Shown piece after piece: positions 16,721 through 29,297 of a stretch of DNA of 60,201 nucleotides. The translations under genes and the position numbers were made by a program. The notes beneath the pieces are model-generated. The model did no database searches and was not told where the DNA came from. It saw only the letters and a list, made by a program, of their open reading frames with translations. Location: NCBI GenBank assembly GCA_003056205.1, contig LSNS01000006.1, positions 1 to 60,201 on the forward strand, read 5' to 3'. This DNA comes from Parcubacteria group bacterium M6-OD1-4. GTDB lineage: Bacteria; Patescibacteriota; Patescibacteriia; Patescibacteriales; UBA12465. Numbering within the stretch: position 1 is the first letter of the stretch; every line of letters begins with the position of its first letter.

Positions 16721-16749
16721 ATTATAACATTTTATGTTTTATCTGTCAA
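16721..16749 (-). promoter_or_regulatory. Consensus sigma70 promoter for the tRNA-like RNA
   Basis: TTGACA (16749-16744)-N17-TATAAT (16726-16721) with TG extension. Confidence 0.8.
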
Positions 16750-17037
16750 TGGTAAGTAGTGAAATTTTAGATGATTAGTTTCTTCTAAGATTTCAATCGT
16801 CGCTTTTACCGACGGATTATATGATGGTTTTAGATAGAAGTTATTTGCATATTCTTTTTGTAATGGTGATAAAAATTCATCCCCCCAAGAAGGTGAGAAA
16901 GTATTTACCCCCAAAAAATCAATAATAATTTTTTCAGTATTATTTTTAGGAAGTCGCGAACGTATTGCCGCTAAAGCTTCTTTTCCTAGTTGGCGAGATA
17001 TTAGCAAATCACCAAATTTTTTTAATTCAATTAACAT
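16732..17037 (-). CDS. STAS-like (DUF4325-type) protein
   Basis: LISRQLG...IIIDFLGVNTFSPSWGDEF pattern; follows the HATPase gene. Confidence 0.75.
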   Translation of the reverse strand: MLIELKKFGDLLISRQLGKEALAAIRSRLPKNNTEKIIIDFLGVNTFSPSWGDEFLSPLQKEYANNFYLKPSYNPSVKATIEILEETNHLKFHYLPLTDKT

Positions 17038-17047
17038 ATTTTGCAGT

Positions 17048-17806
17048 TTAAAAAGAAATTAATGCTAAACAACCCCTAAATTTGGTCGTACTGGGTCGTA
17101 CCTCTAATTTATTAGTAGTTTCATCTAAAATTAAATAAGCACTCCCAGATTGGAAATATAATTTTAAAGCTATATCCTTTTTAATATCTATAATTACTTT
17201 TTTGACATATTTGAGTCCATTTCCTCTATTCTCTGGCGCTCGTCCCGAGAGTTTTTCTGTAAAGGAAACTAATAAGGCTTCTTGGTCATTGGTTAACGTG
17301 GATCGCACCCTCTGCAAAGTCGTTAAAATGCCCTGTCCCCGATCAGCCAAAGCTATTTGTCGTTTATATAAATTATAAGCAAAAAATATTCCGCGAATAT
17401 CTGGCCAAGACCCTAAATTATGATCAAAAGAATTATTGCCAATTTCTCCAACAACAGAAGTTATTAAAGAAAAATCTTTTTTTAATTCAGGAATTTCTAA
17501 CATCATTTTTTCTAAATATTGGAGTCTGGTTTGAAAAGTTGGACTATCTAAACAAAAAAATTCATTTTTTAATCCACGATTATTTGTTAGATTAGAAATA
17601 GATTTTGAAACCCATTCTTCTGCCAAAGAAAAAATATTATTTCCGATTAATTGAATATCAGAGAGTTTATAATAACGATATCCGTCATGATTGAAGCGAA
17701 TTGCCCGAAGTCGGCCAGATTTATCCCAACGTCTCAAGGTTTGCATTGAAATATTAAGTATTCTCGCTGCTTCGCTGATTTTTATTAAGCCCTCATTATC
17801 TATCAT
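17048..17806 (-). CDS. MerR-type HTH fused to a HATPase_c (anti-sigma-kinase-like) domain
   Basis: ISEAARILNISMQTLRRWD...GYRYY; EIGNNSFDH, ADRGQGI, RGNGL boxes. Confidence 0.8.
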   Translation of the reverse strand: MIDNEGLIKISEAARILNISMQTLRRWDKSGRLRAIRFNHDGYRYYKLSDIQLIGNNIFSLAEEWVSKSISNLTNNRGLKNEFFCLDSPTFQTRLQYLEKMMLEIPELKKDFSLITSVVGEIGNNSFDHNLGSWPDIRGIFFAYNLYKRQIALADRGQGILTTLQRVRSTLTNDQEALLVSFTEKLSGRAPENRGNGLKYVKKVIIDIKKDIALKLYFQSGSAYLILDETTNKLEVRPSTTKFRGCLALISF

Positions 17807-20702: not shown

Positions 20703-21491
20703 TCAGGAAGCTGAGCTTGAAGTTTTTTTCTCTCCAGCCTCATTCCAGAGAGAATTAAAAATAAATTTATTTATTTCATAAATATTCTTATTTTCAATAA
20801 TAATTGAAACCAGGTGTTCTTTATTGATGACTTGGAAAGATACTTTATTATCATAAATTTGAATTGCAGACTTGAATTGCACTAAATGCTTATTAAGATA
20901 ACGAATGTTCGTTATTTTTTTGTAGTCTAAATTGCTATTAGGTTCGTGAAACGGATCGGCACCAATTCTGATAATTCTTTTTGGTATTCCAAGTTGTTCG
21001 CGTCGGTTTTTGTACCAGGAATTTATTTTTCTAAATTCTTCTTCTTTTTGTAAAGCGCTTTTGTCAAGTAATAGACAAATTTCTGTTTTACTAGTTAAAG
21101 TATCTTCTAAAACTCTCCTAAAACCATCTTGACCTTCATAGAATTTAACCCCAGGTTTATTATTAATTAAATTATAACTGGAGATTAAATCTGGTAAAGA
21201 AGCTGTGAATTCTCTTTTAGTCTTATTAAGTTCTTTCTCACGATATTCCAAAACTTTTTCAAGATTTGCGGGATGTTCGACAATAAACAAAGTTACACTT
21301 GACTTACTTTCTTTTTTTGAAATCAAGCCCAAATCAATCAATTCTTCCAGCCCCTTATAGGTCACGCCCCGGGGTCTTTTTGTTTTTCTAGCAATATCAC
21401 TAGCCTTTAAAGGACCATTTTGTAGTAGGCAATCAAATATCTCAGCCTGAACATTAGTTAAACCGAGTTTGAGAAGTATTTTTTTATCCAT
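20703..21491 (-). CDS. TrmB-family transcriptional regulator (HTH + PLD-like sensor domain)
   Basis: LGLTNVQAEIFDCLLQNG...RGVTYKGLEELIDLGL; KPGVKFYEG; IQIYDNKV. Confidence 0.85.
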   Translation of the reverse strand: MDKKILLKLGLTNVQAEIFDCLLQNGPLKASDIARKTKRPRGVTYKGLEELIDLGLISKKESKSSVTLFIVEHPANLEKVLEYREKELNKTKREFTASLPDLISSYNLINNKPGVKFYEGQDGFRRVLEDTLTSKTEICLLLDKSALQKEEEFRKINSWYKNRREQLGIPKRIIRIGADPFHEPNSNLDYKKITNIRYLNKHLVQFKSAIQIYDNKVSFQVINKEHLVSIIIENKNIYEINKFIFNSLWNEAGEKKTSSSAS

Positions 21492-21660: not shown

Positions 21661-21689
21661 ACTATAGCAAAATAAAATATGTTTGTCAA
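21661..21689 (-). promoter_or_regulatory. Promoter of the trmB-like gene
   Basis: TTGACA-N17-TATAGT on the minus strand; overlaps palindrome ttgtca-N10-tgacaa (21683-21704). Confidence 0.65.
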
Positions 21690-21785: not shown

Positions 21786-21814
21786 TTGACAGATATGTCA
21801 AGCTATGATATACT
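21786..21814 (+). promoter_or_regulatory. Promoter of the RNA-rich operon with a palindromic operator over the -35 box
   Basis: TTGACA-N17-TATACT with TG extension; TTGACA-gata-TGTCAA palindrome at 21786-21801. Confidence 0.75.
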
Positions 21815-21820
21815 GTCAGT

Positions 21821-22390
21821 ATTAAAAGTGAGAAAAACGAAAGGATGATGATTAAATCGTTCTCCTAAATAGATTAAGGAATAATCTATAGTGTACGTAA
21901 ATAATTTAAAGTGATTATGACAGTTTCAGGAGATTAAGATGAATTAACATCTACTTCTTTCTTAAAAAATAAGAAAGGAGTTAGGGAGAGAGTTCATTTC
22001 CTGAGGCTAGCAAGCACTTATTTGTTTGCTTTCATCTTCAGTCTTTGACTCAAGTTGAAATAAACGTTTGGTCGAGCTGATCCGAAGATTACGTTGCAAA
22101 CCGTAATCTCAGGCGCAGGCGATCTTAGTATCTTGTAACCGTATTTCCGCAAGGAGAAAAGGTTCGGAGAAAAGCGACCCAACGTGACCGTCTCTTATGA
22201 GGAGATCGGCTGAGCCCCTAAACCTTGAACAAGTTTAAGACTCAGGAATTTCCTCAGAAAAGAAAAAAAGAGGGAAAGTTCTTTGTCAAAAAAAATATTA
22301 AAATTTTTTTATTCTTTGAAAGGCATTATTCAGAGTATCCTGTTAGCGCATTATTAATTAGATGGGCGATAGAATACTCCGGACAATGTT
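21821..22390 (+). ncRNA. Long structured leader or ncRNA of unknown class
   Basis: About 11 near-contiguous stems with G-U pairs favouring the + strand, e.g. 21922-21934/21996-22008 and 22064-22074/22175-22185. Confidence 0.65.
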
Positions 22391-22414
22391 GCGAGGAGAG
22401 AAAAAACTAAGTCG

Positions 22415-22810
22415 ATGAAAAGTGTAAAATTTTTTGCCAGCCTGGGAGTAGTCTCTGGGTATGGGCATAAAAATGTAACCGCTACCAGCGCGGTTAATAT
22501 AGCTGGAAAAGCTTGGCAGAAAGCCGCTGCCGAGGTAGCCACCAAGAACGGGGGCACCTATGTTGGTGCGGTGATTACTCCAGCGCGAGTAATTTATCAT
22601 ATTGACTGGGGTTGCCCGGTCGGCGGAGAAATTGCAGTCGCCATTACTGGCGAATGCAATCCAGAGTATACTAAATTGGCAGCATATAAGGCTGCCGTAT
22701 TGACAACATTGAAAAGGGCCGCGTTGGCTCTTGGACAAAAGACAACTCAGTTGACCTTCCAGGAGGTCGAATTTGAGTACTTAGATTTTCGTCCTAAAGG
22801 AAAAAAATAG
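22415..22810 (+). CDS. Hypothetical protein (131 aa, WGCPVGGE motif)
   Basis: ATG ORF, first gene after the leader; higher GC than the host genes. Confidence 0.75.
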   Translation: MKSVKFFASLGVVSGYGHKNVTATSAVNIAGKAWQKAAAEVATKNGGTYVGAVITPARVIYHIDWGCPVGGEIAVAITGECNPEYTKLAAYKAAVLTTLKRAALALGQKTTQLTFQEVEFEYLDFRPKGKK

Positions 22811-22905: not shown

Positions 22906-23229
22906 ATGGAAAATTTAATTAATATGACTCCCCACCCGATTAATATTATCAAGGAAGGTCAGCCAACCAAAACCATCCCTATTTCAGGGAAATTGATTCG
23001 GTTGAAAACCTCCACAATATTAACGGGGGTTGAGGTCAATGGTGTGCGTTTATCTAAAACTGTTTTTGGTGAGCCCGAAGGGCTCCCGAAAGAAGTTGAA
23101 GGAACTTACATTATTGTTTCTCAGCTCGTGAAGTCAGCTTTGCCGCAACGTTCGGACCTTCTGGTCCCTGCTGAAGTGGTGAGGGATAACCAGGGACACA
23201 TCTTAGGATGTCGTTCTTTGGGAATCTAG
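22906..23229 (+). CDS. Hypothetical protein (107 aa, NxTPH ... IVSQLV ... VRD.QG.ILGC)
   Basis: ATG ORF in the operon; motif pattern recalled from phage-like uncharacterised proteins, not verified. Confidence 0.75.
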   Translation: MENLINMTPHPINIIKEGQPTKTIPISGKLIRLKTSTILTGVEVNGVRLSKTVFGEPEGLPKEVEGTYIIVSQLVKSALPQRSDLLVPAEVVRDNQGHILGCRSLGI

Positions 23230-23380
23230 GTTGATTTACGGAGGAGCCTGAACAGGATTCGGGGTGTTAAACAAACACCTGGCAACAGAATAAATAGTTT
23301 CCCGAATAGTAGAAAAATGGGTTAATAAGTCACTACGAAGTTCAAACAAAATCTGGATAACTATTGTTCAAATAGTTATC

Positions 23381-23433
23381 CTCCCTCTCGAAATGTGTGT
23401 TTCGACTGATGAGTCCAAAAGGACGAAAGGGAG
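23381..23433 (+). ncRNA. Hammerhead ribozyme, type III; predicted cleavage after C23387 (CUC triplet)
   Basis: ctccc-UC / stem I tcgaaa-tgtgtg-tttcga / CTGATGA / stem II gtcc-aaaa-ggac / GAAA / gggag: full core and three perfect stems. Confidence 0.92.
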
Positions 23434-23628
23434 TTGTTCATTTAAAATTAAGATAAATTAAATCTTTCATTTTTCTATTTTAATTTAATAATTCAAATAT
23501 TTTAATTCTTATTTTTAGTATTTTCTCAAAAAAGATATTAGAAATGAGAATTAAAATAATTTGTTAACTTTAAAAAAGGAGACCTAATGTGAGATTGATG
23601 AAAATCAAGGTAAGCGTTAGGAAGAAAG

Positions 23629-24867
23629 ATGAAAAAGGTTATTGTTTGTGGTCCGCCCCACTCTGGCAAATCGGTGTTTTTGGCCAATATCATGGCTAAA
23701 ATACCGTGTGATCAATATATATTGATCTATGGGTGTCCCGATGGTGAGGGACATTGGTCAAATATTGCCAACCAAAATGTAGCCCAGGCAATTAGACAGA
23801 AAGGTGTTTTTGACGCCACTTTTCTAAATTTCATTACGAAGTCCATCCGAAATGCCGAGCAACGCTTGGTGTTAGTAGATGTTGGAGGACGTCGCTCTTC
23901 TGAGAATGAAATTATTTTTCGCGAGTGCGAAGGGTATATTATTCTTTCGTCTTCGCCAGAAGAAATTTCGGCTTGGCGACAATTCGGTGATGGGCTGGGA
24001 CTGCAATGTCTAGCTGAACTGGATTCGCGGCTAAGTACAGAGGAGTCTGTTCTTTATCCCAACCAAGGTGATGGAATCCTGAGGGGTTTGGTTGTCGGGT
24101 TAGAACGGGGGACCTTCGTAAACTCGGTTGTAATTGATGTTTTAGTCAAACGATTCAAAGCAATAATTACAGCTAATAGCCAGATGACGCTGGCTGAAAA
24201 AGAAGCGGATATTTCTGGGATTCAATTAGCTGACAAGATTGGCATTGAAGACCGGACCGACCCATTCTTAGGTTATCGCCCCTGGCATTTAATGCCAGCT
24301 TTGAAGGCGGTAAAACGTCTGTATTCTAAAAAGATAATTCGCATTTGGAACATTCGCTCTTTTTGGACGGCATCAGCGATGGTTATTGCTTTCCAAAAAT
24401 CACTTGTGGAATTGTTTGATGTTTCTAATGGTTACATCGCAATTCCGAGTTTGAAACCAAAGAAGTCTGGGTCAGAAATTGGAATTGACTGGAGAGTAAA
24501 TGAATTTGACGATTTTACCATCGTTAACTTCAGGATTAATGGTGATATATTTGATATATCTACCTTACGGAAAGTGTACCCACCGGCCGTTAATCAAGCA
24601 AAAGGGGTGATAATTTCAGGTAGAGGACCGATTGTTTTAGGGGCGACTATTGCTCGTGCCTACAGCAATGGCAAACATCCGTTTATTGCGATGTTTGCTG
24701 CGGCAGAATCGGGCCGTAAACAGCTTTCTTTAAATGGTCAAAAATGGGATGAAGTCTATCCTGTTTGTGGCCCATGTGTGGAAATTGCCGGCCAGAATAT
24801 CGGACGGCTAATTCCTGTGAATACAGAAAATCTTAAATTTGAGGTCAAGGAGGACCCTATAAAATGA
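23629..24867 (+). CDS. csx3: P-loop NTPase fused to Csx3 (Crn3 ring-nuclease-like) domain(s)
   Basis: GPPHSGKS, CPDGEG, LVDVGG; C-terminal PPAVNQAKGVIISGRGPIVL matches the Csx3 signature. Confidence 0.8.
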   Translation: MKKVIVCGPPHSGKSVFLANIMAKIPCDQYILIYGCPDGEGHWSNIANQNVAQAIRQKGVFDATFLNFITKSIRNAEQRLVLVDVGGRRSSENEIIFRECEGYIILSSSPEEISAWRQFGDGLGLQCLAELDSRLSTEESVLYPNQGDGILRGLVVGLERGTFVNSVVIDVLVKRFKAIITANSQMTLAEKEADISGIQLADKIGIEDRTDPFLGYRPWHLMPALKAVKRLYSKKIIRIWNIRSFWTASAMVIAFQKSLVELFDVSNGYIAIPSLKPKKSGSEIGIDWRVNEFDDFTIVNFRINGDIFDISTLRKVYPPAVNQAKGVIISGRGPIVLGATIARAYSNGKHPFIAMFAAAESGRKQLSLNGQKWDEVYPVCGPCVEIAGQNIGRLIPVNTENLKFEVKEDPIK

Positions 24868-25559: not shown

Positions 25560-28500
25560 ATGAAAAAATTAAAAAAATTACCCATCGATGCCTTTAAAAA
25601 TGAAATTTTAGAGTGTATTGAAAAGAACCCGGTTTCAATAATTGTGGCCGAAACTGGTGCCGGTAAATCTACTCGTGTACCACAATTTCTTTTAGAATCC
25701 ACGGATTGGCAAATTGTCGTTACGCAACCACGTCGTGTGGCTGCTAAAGCTATAGCCAAGCGTGTTGCTGAAGAAATGAATTGTCCATTTGGAGACCTAG
25801 TTGGTTTTCGAACGGCAATTGAGCATCGGGATAGTTCTGAAACCAGGTGTCTTTTTGTCACTGATGGTTTACAGCTCGTTCGTGAGCTGGTTAAGACCAA
25901 AGCATCAATAAGCGGCGGAATTTGTCTTCTTATTGATGAGGTCCATGAGTGGAATCTCAATATTGAGACTCTTGTGGCCTGGGCAAAGAGACATCTTCTC
26001 TCTGGCACTGATATTAAAGTTGTTTTAATGTCAGCTACATTAGATTTTAAAGAATTATCAAAATTTTTTGATGATGCTCCCGTAATTCAAGTCCCAGGAC
26101 GCTGTTTTCCAGTACTAGGTTCGCCTACACATCCAAATGGCATTATTCAGAAAGGATCTTATGAGATGCTCACTGAAATCCAGAGACTAATCGCCGAAGG
26201 TGCGAATTCACTTGTTTTTTTACCTGGTAAAGGTGAAATAAAACAAATGGAAAGAGAGCTAAAGCAAAGCAATCCGAAGGCGGAAATTTTACCATTACAT
26301 GGCGATGTTGATTCGAATCAACAAGAATTAGTCTTCAAATCCTTTGCTCAACCGAAGGTGGTGTTGGCAACTAATATTGCCCAGACATCATTAACAATTC
26401 CGGATATCGATGCTGTTGTTGATTCGGGCTTAGAGCGCAGAGTTGAACTCATTAATGGCGTCGAGACCTTGTTGCTGGCAAATGTTTCTCAGGCCGATTG
26501 TCGCCAAAGAGCTGGACGGGCCGGGAGAGTTAAAGAAGGTCAATATGTTTTATGTAATAATAAAGCATACGATTCTTTTTCAACCTTTCCAATACCAGAA
26601 ATTCAGCGTTCTTTGTTGGATCAAATGGTATTACGTTTAGCTGGTGCTAATTTAAATGTTTTAGAGCTTTCCTTTTATCATCAACCAGAAAAGCAAATTC
26701 TAGTTGATGCTAAAAAACTGCTTTATGCAATTGAAGCTCTTGATCTAAACGGAGAAATAACAAAACTGGGGCGAAAAATTAATCGTTTTCCAGTGAATGT
26801 TATGTTTGCTCGCATGATGTTGGAAGCACTGGAGCGTAAATGTTTGGCGCCAATACTCAGTATTGTAGCTATTTTAGGAACTCGCTATGGTTCCATTCGC
26901 CGCAGACAACGGGATAACGACCCAGAAACCTACCAGTCTTGGGAAAAACTTATCGATTCTGATAAAGAATATCACTCTGATCTTCTATTAGAATATGATT
27001 TGTTCAAAATAGCTCGCTTCATGAAAAGGAGTGAATTAGCTAAGAAAGGTATTGATCCGAAAGGTTTTCGGACGGCAGTTGAAATTCGGGAGCGGATAAA
27101 AACTGCAATTCACCATCTTGGATATCAGAACCAAGACCATAGCCGGAACAAAACAAATGAAGAAGAAATTCTGAAATGTATTGCTTCTGGAATGTTGGTT
27201 CATTTATACCAGCATGCGGGCGGTAATGAATATGTAAATGGGGAAACGCGCACTTTAGCTCGTGAATCCATTATTCAAAATCTTCCTAGTAATCCAGAAT
27301 GGATTGTCGGGGAACCATTGAATATAGACATTGTTAACCGACGTGGTCGGGCACAAACCATTGCCTTAGTTAAGAGTTGTACAGTGGTTGATCCCCTGTG
27401 GTTTATCAAAATTGCCCCGCACTTAGTGGAGCAAAAAATTGAGAACTTACGTTATGATGGGGAATTAATGGGTATAGTTGAAGATCATTTCGTGCTTTTT
27501 AACGGTGTTGAAATTGCCCGGAAGAAGAAGTTGGCAGACTATCGCCTAGAAGTGCTTGATAAATTCAGTTCGGCGTTAGCTCATCATTATTTTCCAAGTG
27601 ATTCTACTTGGCAACAGATTAGCGATGCTAATGAAGCCAATTTAGCAAAATACCGTAAATTTCGGATAAGAAGTGGTGGAATAATTGAGAATTTAGATTC
27701 ATCATTTTTATCCAATCACTATCAAAACGTGCTTGAGAAAGCCGTAAAAGATAAGAAAATAAAAAACTTATCTTTGCCGGTGATTGAGGCAACATTAGGT
27801 GGATTATCTTCGCTTTATTTACCGCTTGATTCGTATCTTTCGGCAGAAGAGGAAAATCGCATCAAACGCGAAAACCCCGATACTGTTGAAATAGCTGGTC
27901 AAGAGTATCCTGTTACTTATGGTCAATCAAGTAATGAATTCTATGCCCAGCTTTCAGTTGATAAGAAATTTATTCAAGAAACTAATCTGGAGCGGATCAA
28001 TCTTCCCAATGGTCGTGAGCTTGTGATTGAGTGCGAAAATTATTCAGGAACTTTTTCTGAAATTCGTATTAAATTTCAGGAACAAATGATCAATAACTTC
28101 AAAGCTGAAATTTCTCAGTTTATTGTCATTCCGCAAGAAGAACCGTTTCAGCGGAATAATTGGACATGGCAACTCACTGAGTTCGGACAAACTCTACAAA
28201 AATATTTTAATCAAATTCAAGTTGAAATTATTGAGAATTTAAATTCTGATAATCAGACGGAATTAATTGAAATAGTTAAGAGAAAAACTGAAGAAAAGAA
28301 AAAGAATCTTCTTATTGGATATGAAAAAGCCAATATTTTAATTAAAAATGAAGAGGATGATTTGGAAAAAACTTTAGTTGAATTTAATATGGAGTTTGCT
28401 CAAGAGGAAGTTCACCAAATTCGTAATCAGTTTATAGAAGTAAAATCGTTTTTGCAAAAAGCGAAATTTACAGAAATAAATAATTACTGTCGTGAGATAG

Positions 28501-28904
28501 AAAAAAGGATTACAGAATTAAAGCCGATGGTAGCAAAGCGGAAAAAAGAACGGGAAGATGTAGTCAAAAAAAATAATATTCCCAATTATCTTTTATCTGC
28601 CTTCGGTGGAGACTTGAGCCGCACCACCCAATTTCTGGCTAATGTTTCCAAGATTCAGACTTGGAGATTGGATGAACATGAAATCACTTGCGGTCGTTCT
28701 CGGGCGAGCCAGAATATCAAAGAAGCCTGGACTGCGATGAGAGAGAAGTCTGATTTCTTTTGTGGGGCTGATCCAAATGATGTTAAGTATTATGTACACG
28801 AATATCATTTTGGAAATAGTCAAAACGAAGAAGATGAATCAGAAATCGATTCATCCAGTGACGCTATGTTTGAGGCTTTGCGTCGGGCTGGTCTAGTCGA
28901 ATAG
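25560..28904 (+). CDS. DEAH/RHA-family RNA helicase (HrpA/HrpB-like) with long C-terminal extension
   Basis: AETGAGKST, TQPRRVAA, DEVH, MSAT, ATNIAQTSLTI, QRAGRAGR; HA2-like region. Confidence 0.9.
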   Translation: MKKLKKLPIDAFKNEILECIEKNPVSIIVAETGAGKSTRVPQFLLESTDWQIVVTQPRRVAAKAIAKRVAEEMNCPFGDLVGFRTAIEHRDSSETRCLFVTDGLQLVRELVKTKASISGGICLLIDEVHEWNLNIETLVAWAKRHLLSGTDIKVVLMSATLDFKELSKFFDDAPVIQVPGRCFPVLGSPTHPNGIIQKGSYEMLTEIQRLIAEGANSLVFLPGKGEIKQMERELKQSNPKAEILPLHGDVDSNQQELVFKSFAQPKVVLATNIAQTSLTIPDIDAVVDSGLERRVELINGVETLLLANVSQADCRQRAGRAGRVKEGQYVLCNNKAYDSFSTFPIPEIQRSLLDQMVLRLAGANLNVLELSFYHQPEKQILVDAKKLLYAIEALDLNGEITKLGRKINRFPVNVMFARMMLEALERKCLAPILSIVAILGTRYGSIRRRQRDNDPETYQSWEKLIDSDKEYHSDLLLEYDLFKIARFMKRSELAKKGIDPKGFRTAVEIRERIKTAIHHLGYQNQDHSRNKTNEEEILKCIASGMLVHLYQHAGGNEYVNGETRTLARESIIQNLPSNPEWIVGEPLNIDIVNRRGRAQTIALVKSCTVVDPLWFIKIAPHLVEQKIENLRYDGELMGIVEDHFVLFNGVEIARKKKLADYRLEVLDKFSSALAHHYFPSDSTWQQISDANEANLAKYRKFRIRSGGIIENLDSSFLSNHYQNVLEKAVKDKKIKNLSLPVIEATLGGLSSLYLPLDSYLSAEEENRIKRENPDTVEIAGQEYPVTYGQSSNEFYAQLSVDKKFIQETNLERINLPNGRELVIECENYSGTFSEIRIKFQEQMINNFKAEISQFIVIPQEEPFQRNNWTWQLTEFGQTLQKYFNQIQVEIIENLNSDNQTELIEIVKRKTEEKKKNLLIGYEKANILIKNEEDDLEKTLVEFNMEFAQEEVHQIRNQFIEVKSFLQKAKFTEINNYCREIEKRITELKPMVAKRKKEREDVVKKNNIPNYLLSAFGGDLSRTTQFLANVSKIQTWRLDEHEITCGRSRASQNIKEAWTAMREKSDFFCGADPNDVKYYVHEYHFGNSQNEEDESEIDSSSDAMFEALRRAGLVE

Positions 28905-29059
28905 TTTTTTGTCTTCCCTCGACATAAAATTGGGCGCTTTAATCCCTAAGAGCGAAATTCAGATGGGAATAAACTTAAAATTGCGAACAGGCTCGTTTAA
29001 CCTGTTCGCTTCTTTCCCGAAGATATCATTGAAAATGGTGTTTTCAGCAGAGAAATAAT

Positions 29060-29200: not shown

Positions 29201-29297
29201 TATAGTCGCTAAATCTAATATTTTATTAATAATAATTTATGGTAAACTTGTAATTTAATTTTAAAAAAATATTTTTATTAAAATTCTTAGTGATGTC

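Follow-up and report, generated by a model that had tools for sequence, protein, structure and literature searches.

HK022 put and Bacillus EAR are RNA-based processive antiterminators in which a structured cis RNA lies upstream of a long operon, an arrangement also found at the locus described here; neither of these RNAs is known to base-pair with downstream tags. The early regions of lambdoid phages have a divergent HTH regulator, as this locus does. For the rRNA operons, the part of PMC10250234 used here describes an antitermination complex of boxB-boxA-boxC RNA, NusA/B/E/G and SuhB, together with a leader-trailer helix, and states as its model that the tethered leader pairs with the later trailer. 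Clustered hammerheads that flank variable genes in prophage operons and cut the operon messages are described in the sections of Perreault et al. 2011 (PMC3088659) drawn on here. Counter-defence genes of phages and plasmids, among them AcrIII-1, Crn4b and the candidate AcrIIIB4, are covered by the cited parts of PMC12830947 and PMC12255297.

We analysed a window of 60,201 nucleotides from Parcubacteria group bacterium M6-OD1-4 (contig LSNS01000006.1), in which a leader RNA forms the 5′ start of a long cassette-built operon in an ultra-small bacterium (Table 1). As in the rrn and lambda nut systems, boxA-like sites follow the leader and each processing site and NusB is present; as in the rrn operons, an element of the leader would pair with a much later sequence. 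Relative to what the used part of PMC10250234 describes, the predicted contact is a loop-tag pairing of 6-8 bp at several sites and not one helix of more than 17 bp, the cuts would be made by hammerheads, and the leader is a pseudoknotted RNA of 0.5-1.1 kb. Also unlike the E. coli rrn complex, no match to the Rho RNA-binding domain or the SuhB family was found in this 96%-complete genome. With the prophage operons of Perreault et al. the locus shares several type III hammerheads between variable genes, anti-defence ones included (ardA there); those operons, in the sections drawn on, are described without leader RNA, tag or boxA, and the loci here are chromosomal. The leader resembles GOLLD, ROOL and OLE, as presented in the consulted portion of PMC12286853, in its size, its many helices and its loop-mediated long-range pairing, and differs from them in lacking an Rfam match, in being part of an mRNA and in having the partner of its loop in the downstream message. 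The enzyme families are those of phage and plasmid counter-defence, and the two window proteins compared with the cited parts of that literature retain the catalytic residues; what differs is that a chromosomal island of a Patescibacterium brings several of the families together. The string 'Patesci' is absent from the main texts of PMC12830947 and PMC12255297, and the main text of a preprint on noncoding clusters, in the portion available, mentions neither boxA nor CPR. A literature search that covered few subscription journals found no account of the leader RNA, of a loop-tag system or of Patescibacteria operons with hammerheads, and it turned up no bacterial leader that base-pairs with a co-evolving tag repeated at several distant places in the same message.

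Table 1. Features of the leader RNA and its operon, in window coordinates
Feature	Coordinates	Strand	Support
TrmB-family HTH regulator gene, divergent	20703..21491	-	Pfam TrmB, E 1.8e-11
Promoter-like site for the TrmB gene	21661..21689	-	11/12 consensus matches
Sigma70-type promoter, TTGACA-17-TATACT with TG; predicted start near 21821	21786..21814	+	
5′ hairpin	21869..21889	+	
Module A: 13-bp closing helix and junction with conserved GGAGAGAG (21985-21992)	21922..22008	+	94.6% paired; 4 pairs with two-sided change
PK1: GUUUGC (22024-29) with loop GCAAAC (22096-101)	22024..22101	+	Covariation
Core domain: P1, three-way junction, P2-P3 arm, GCAA-tetraloop arm	22064..22185	+	
3′ module: two alternative helices of strand 22198-206, back (hairpin 22188-22209) and forward (to 22248-56)	22188..22256	+	
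Hairpin P7; loop CUUGAACAA (22224-22232), putative guide complementary to downstream tags	22210..22245	+	
GAGGGAA, third partner (pairs with 22249-56), then boxA-like GTTCTTTGTCAA (22278-89)	22270..22289	+	
Gene-proximal hairpin and ribosome-binding site; separate cassette element	22322..22400	+	z -3.9
SAM-AMP lyase homologue, first gene	22415..22810	+	PDB 9gad, E 4.7e-17; profile E 3.9e-35
Crn4 ring-nuclease homologue, second gene	22906..23229	+	PDB 9r7b, E 3.4e-13
Tag GTTCAA (23340-45), then hairpin 23355-81	23340..23381	+	
Type III hammerhead (23380-23434), predicted cut after 23387; boxA-like GTTCATTTAAAA (23436-47)	23380..23447	+	
ATPase fused to Csx3/Crn3-like domain, third gene	23629..24867	+	Pfam Cas_csx3, E 4.3e-6; PDB 6yud, E 2.3e-6
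HrpA-like DEAH RNA helicase, last gene of the unit	25560..28904	+	
End module: hairpin (loop CGTTTAA, imperfect tag) and hammerhead-less helix	28983..29054	+	Same module in 6/21 homologous loci

The 570-nt leader (21821-22390), pointed out in an initial annotation of this DNA, folded at -164.8 kcal/mol on the + strand, with a z-score of -6.64 and none of 100 shuffles as good; the - strand also folds well (z -5.53), and sub-domains within the leader gave z-scores from -5.5 to -0.4. We read the + strand as the RNA, in line with that annotation, because of the conserved G-U pairs, the sigma70 promoter and a hammerhead on the same strand. The longest + strand open reading frame, 61 aa from a TTG start, bears out the earlier statement that the leader holds no credible ORF, and the hairpins then listed all lie where they had been placed or within 1-2 nt. 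Rfam 15 gave no match at its gathering threshold within 21821-22390; at E values up to 10 the only overlaps were a 21-bit snoRNA and a 15-bit IS009 match, neither credible, and the homologous leaders matched no Rfam family. The leader is not RNase P or tmRNA, the motifs of the former lying on contig C8 of this genome and the latter on contig C6, nor does it qualify as a group I or group II intron, having no Rfam match, an intergenic position and its own promoter. The earlier exclusion of known riboswitch, RNase P, tmRNA and intron families thus held. Resemblances to twister, HDV-like and hairpin ribozymes, glycine and c-di-GMP riboswitches and group II domain V, judged against consensus motifs, were dropped because other defining elements were absent. 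Of what marks a riboswitch, mutually exclusive conserved pairings are present and a consistent downstream pathway is not, the cargo being variable. On comparative grounds, the leader is a real, order-wide structured RNA outside every catalogued family.

Homologues of the leader are chromosomal and occur in Patescibacteria. By BLAST, 12 of the genus's 69 genomes, this one included, have the core, as do, by covariance model, 12 of the 151 sampled from the order; the covariance model of the 3′ module matched 15 of 148 family and 26 of 151 order genomes, then 4 of 151 in the class and 3 of 151 in the phylum, one of these likely by chance. A match in genome G500 (E 1.4e-4) was discarded as chance. 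Pattern scans returned 23 stretches from metagenomes, of which 18 were kept as members, and 19 from genomes, of which 11 were kept; the 13 discarded stretches lacked the core motif, and the seven of them that were viewed looked chance-like. Among rows found in this way the invariance of two motifs is by construction, because the pattern fixed both. The kept records are labelled Patescibacteria or Ca. Falkowbacteria, apart from four that carry the conflicting label 'uncultured Gammaproteobacteria'. Viral contigs gave no leader match in one search and a single chance match in coding DNA in another, and the phages and plasmids searched gave none. The window's leader is the shortest seen, with 413 nt from the -35 to the anchor versus 574-1034 nt in homologues; the longer leaders carry GGAGAGAG-loop hairpins that the window's leader does not have, and a terminator-like hairpin occurs in 10 of the 18 leaders scanned and not in the window's own. 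In the 5′ extensions (e.g. L069, L073, L046) there are three to five GGAGAGAG motifs per leader, one of them in a hairpin loop complementary to the 5′ arm CUCUCUCC of the terminator-like hairpin, a pair that is a possible attenuator, absent from the window. Locus L143 (genome G164) has two copies of the 3′ module in a tandem unit with its own promoter, and L101 (G114) has a second, shortened copy about 120 nt downstream.

The fold is established by comparison of 21 distinct homologous sequences. An 80-pair model was paired in 92.2% of 1652 cells, versus 82.3% in shuffles and 34-50% in slid controls, and two-sided change affected 41 of the 80 pairs versus 26.2 in shuffles (0/500 reached it), so that the covariation looked for since the first reading is present. 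(Alignment A2 omitted the truncated loci L040, L045, L052 and L059 and the near-duplicate L050.) Most of the elements first drawn by eye survive: the closing helix acgtttggtcg/cgacccaacgt is P1 (22064-74/22175-85) and is supported by covariation, as are the GNRA-capped helix ttcc-GCAA-ggag and hairpin 22210-22245, and all seven pairs of gattacg/cgtaatc show two-sided change. Two survive in part. The 87-nt rod keeps its 13-bp outer helix and loses its inner arm, which is variable and a junction in homologues, and hairpin 22188-22209 is retained at 92.9% paired with no two-sided change in the 21-homologue set. The helices tccgaa/ttcgga (60.5% of cells paired) and agcaagca/tgtttgct (78%) were given up; jointly they are paired in 70.5% of cells, versus 70.2% in shuffles. 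A pseudoknot had been suspected in this domain and there is one, formed by PK1 and not by the long-range pair then proposed. All 21 close homologues have PK1 in unvaried form. In 13 of 29 distant loci the hexamers match perfectly, five distinct pairs being represented in all, with the replacements ACGAAC/GUUCGU, GCGAAC/GUUCGC, ACAUAC/GUAUGU and UCGAAC/GUUCGA; a permutation gave 13 versus a mean of 3.3, a comparison that is partly circular because the 13 loci were chosen for a match. The GCAA-tetraloop arm also holds a bulged U and an AGUA/GAA motif (22127-30/22169-71) that we take to be loop-E-like. A long-range pairing of GGAGAGAG with UCUCUU, present in close homologues, was rejected after its loss in two distant ones inspected. 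At both 22094-22101 and 22224-22232 the long-range contact joins a loop ending in ...AAC to a GUU... strand, which hints at one reused motif.

The second of these loops, that of P7, is complementary to a tag of 6-8 nt that stands before the hairpin(+hammerhead) modules of the operon. A hairpin precedes most downstream hammerheads, and GTTCAA, the complement of the P7 loop UUGAAC, stands before the hairpin and is often repeated in its loop; in the window, the loop of hairpin 23355-81 repeats the tag as TTGTTCAA (23364-71), giving 8 bp with the P7 loop. GTTCAA occurs in 29 of 33 hammerhead modules of the UUGAAC group, versus 1.8% of 25,290 genome windows. In intergenic DNA (12.9 kb, 14 loci) it was counted 32 times versus none for the opposite-strand word; only this intergenic count is used, because the whole-region strand count (83 vs 32) may reflect coding-strand bias. 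When the loop varies the tag follows it (UUGAAU/AUUCAA, UUGAACC/GGUUCAA, UGAACC/GGUUCA, UAACCC/GGGUUA). Across nine lineage groups, the cognate loop-tag score was 51.9 versus 42.2 +/- 3.0 over all permutations (p 4e-4, which is optimistic because the nine groups are related), and two groups, G166 and G164, fail, with only 4 bp, no better than background. A first version of the test, with the wrong loop for the window and a narrower region, had given p 0.015 and 0.155, and the region and score were altered afterwards. In 27 distant loci there were 37 complements versus 12 controls in 41 kb of intergenic DNA, the complements often directly before a pyrimidine-tailed hairpin with or without a hammerhead. 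Two genomes outside those that shaped the loop-tag idea behave alike: G551 has GTTCAA in 3/3 hammerhead modules, and in G527, whose loop is UUAACCC, the sequence GGTTAA precedes a hairpin that lies where the helicase gene ends. These comparisons establish the loop-tag match; judged from sequence, the leader shows a covarying guide-tag relation to its own operon. The initial annotation, which had delimited the leader at 21821-22390, missed the partner elements beyond these limits (tags, hammerhead, boxA) and had taken several separable modules as one unit.

The hammerhead that follows the tag scored 40.6 bits against RF00008 (E 7.7e-7), below the gathering score of 48.5. On inspection of the alignment its CUGAnGA and GAAA core, three stems and NUH site are intact, and it would be expected to cleave itself. 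A hammerhead-less module (tag, hairpin and a conserved helix like TTCTTTCC(C)GA...CAG(A)GAAGAA) occupies the hammerhead slot at 28983-29054 of the window, in L069, L072, L073, L077, L080 and L046, and also in L161; its helix may be a nuclease site or a ribozyme of a new kind. The intergenic hairpins may not be terminators, because their tails are mostly C-rich and not U-rich. BoxA-like sites, established by a matrix built from 25 post-hammerhead sites, follow the leader and most hammerheads; 39 of 49 loci have one 45-195 nt past the 3′ module that exceeds the 90th percentile of background, and the other 10 lack it. They are like the organism's own rrn boxA: the 23S leader site of this genome scores 9.0 with the matrix, and of four 16S leader sites from relatives only two reach the same threshold. 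NusB is encoded in the genome (E 3.1e-37). On contig C10 (about 117750-118700, - strand) two more genes have a boxA-like AGTTCATTAAAAATTGA in their 5′ regions and no leader, one of them preceded by GTTCAA, and on contig C6 the 16S and 23S rRNA genes are unlinked, about 64 kb apart.

These elements can be joined in a scheme that we put forward tentatively, holding it at somewhat less than even confidence, in which the leader works in cis as a scaffold carried along by RNA polymerase, its guide loop recognising each downstream stop-and-cut module. A TrmB-family protein would repress the promoter until some signal; NusB/S10 would then bind the boxA-like site and, in the way proposed for rRNA operons, keep the 3′ module close to where the RNA leaves the polymerase; each emerging tag would pair over 6-8 bp with P7, so that folding of the terminator-like hairpin would be delayed or redirected and the polymerase would read through; the hammerhead would split the message into individual mRNAs, and the Nus factors would be reloaded at the following boxA-like site. 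Because one loop matches the tag before downstream modules, the leader likely steers read-through and cutting of the long message. The idea of a new large ncRNA or antitermination scaffold, raised at the outset, agrees with the missing Rfam match, the covariation, the boxA-like sites and NusB; antitermination itself, with processive read-through of terminators, would be the leader's putative task. Against the scaffold counts the lack of a Rho RNA-binding domain or SuhB match in this 96%-complete genome, SuhB being in the E. coli complex, and the scheme leaves the need for a large pseudoknotted core unexplained.

The promoter of the unit is near consensus and conserved in homologues, and its predicted start lies 594 nt before the first gene (22415). 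A palindrome, TTGACA-N4-TGTCAA, overlaps it and is found in 9 of 19 leaders as a possible operator. The leader had been placed downstream of the TrmB gene; it is in fact upstream of it and divergent. A divergent TrmB homologue stands upstream in 33 of 50 loci, and the TrmB-family protein likely represses the unit. Among other homologous loci, L106 (genome G049) has first cargo genes that by eye we take to resemble a PRTRC/ubiquitin-E2-type cluster; MoxR-vWA, radical SAM and glycosyltransferase genes also occur, and the Rfam DUF805b motif scores above its gathering score inside the homologous operons of L074 (10778-10812) and L102 (13926-13960). Elsewhere in the window (16732-17806, - strand) a MerR-type HTH protein gene adjoins a STAS-like DUF4325 gene, a similar HTH gene lying upstream in L069.

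Gene families of the cargo are established by sequence matches, on which all assignments rest; atlas searches returned unnamed clusters only, largely viral. The SAM-AMP lyase homologue keeps the catalytic Glu (E72) and Q108, the key residues being taken from the cited part of PMC12255297, and T8/H10 and R93 of the Crn4 homologue align with the catalytic residues given in the cited part of PMC12830947; both proteins are predicted to be active. Sister loci carry NrN (E 7e-31) and STIV B116-like, AcrIII-1-family genes. In this genus the cargo includes homologues of enzymes that break down the second messengers of type III CRISPR. Of the 22 close loci, 17 have at least one of SAM-AMP lyase, Crn4, Csx3, NrN and AcrIII-1-like genes, a share that drops to only 2 of 28 among distant loci, which makes the RNA framework older and wider than the CRISPR-signal cargo. 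Gene content and order are shuffled at module borders. In one sequencing run, other contigs break or join at these borders (29268 to 23478, 29274 to 25556), the sites within the window being 22285, 23478-23519, 25555 and 29268-29274; this suggests co-existing strains with shuffled cassettes, in a single run of unknown kind, possibly from the source sample.

The cargo bears on a second account, in which the leader acts after transcription by capturing the tagged 3′ ends of hammerhead-released mRNAs, as a closed loop or in trans, and would stabilise them, gather them in bundles or export them, perhaps into the host cell, the place where the CRISPR-signal enzymes would act. The tags do lie about 15-50 nt upstream of the predicted hammerhead cut, close to the new 3′ ends, the hammerhead-less end modules are tagged too, and the cargo is similar to enzymes that counter a defence for which a Cas10/Cmr2 search of the organism's own 96%-complete genome came back empty. 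A contact of 6-8 bp would nevertheless be weak in trans, and outside the genus the CRISPR-signal cargo is confined to those two loci; we regard such docking as unlikely.

The alternative pairings of the 3′ module allow a further account. This module (22182-22261) is the most conserved part of the leader though its folding z is only -1.1, and its support is therefore covariation and not energy. The forward helix encloses hairpin P7 and shows two-sided change in 6 of 10 pairs among 20 sequences spanning the order, and the whole module in 14 of 20 pairs. A GAGGGAA-type duplex at or below -5 kcal/mol can form in 15 of 21 loci. The 3′ strand motif of the gene-proximal hairpin, further on, recurs in 8 of 20 homologous loci. 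One strand thus has two exclusive partners, and one of these has a third partner just before boxA, as would suit a switch in which a ligand or protein bound by the core flips the 3′ module between two pairings, hiding or exposing boxA and the guide loop; unpaired residues at the core junction are also conserved. The cargo differs between lineages, however, so no common metabolite is implied, the junction sequence drifts among distant homologues, and a switch by itself leaves the tags unexplained. We consider it a rather poor prospect.

The internal guides of self-splicing RNAs offer a parallel for P7 in the EBS loop of group II introns. The leader might accordingly be a new ribozyme with a catalytic core that uses P7 as an internal guide to join or circularise the hammerhead products; the loop-tag covariation is of guide-substrate style, the leader occupies the pre-boxA slot filled elsewhere by hammerheads, and no RtcB match was found in the 96%-complete genome. 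Yet the RNA shows no recognisable catalytic core of a known kind, conservation peaks in the 3′ module and not in the core, and the relevant section of Perreault et al. (PMC3088659) reports no spliced or circular products from clustered hammerheads, which makes this reading improbable. That the elements are cassette or recombination signals at the DNA level, or the decayed remains of hairpins that share no function, would fit the shuffling at module borders and the folding of the - strand but is very hard to credit: the tags are strand-specific, the pseudoknot covaries, G-U pairs are conserved, there are GNRA loops and the hammerheads lie on the same strand, all of which indicate RNA, and the conservation spans an order.

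The cis-acting scaffold that reads tags as the polymerase proceeds is therefore the account we carry forward. In a broader form, possible to our minds and held with low confidence, the leader would be an RNA-guided reader, a programmable loop that together with a matching tag at every border controls read-through, ribozyme release or mRNA packaging, and in one genus it would supply, in phage-like fashion for a symbiont, enzymes that silence the type III CRISPR alarm of the host. If the pairing controls read-through or processing, it would provide a sequence-programmable way of running a long, freely shuffled operon. The pool of SAM-AMP lyase, NrN, Crn4, Csx3 and AcrIII-1-like genes, in a genome without a Cas10 match, raises the question of how cargo enzymes or mRNAs would reach the CRISPR signal and, with it, whether host-dependent Patescibacteria dampen the immunity of their hosts.
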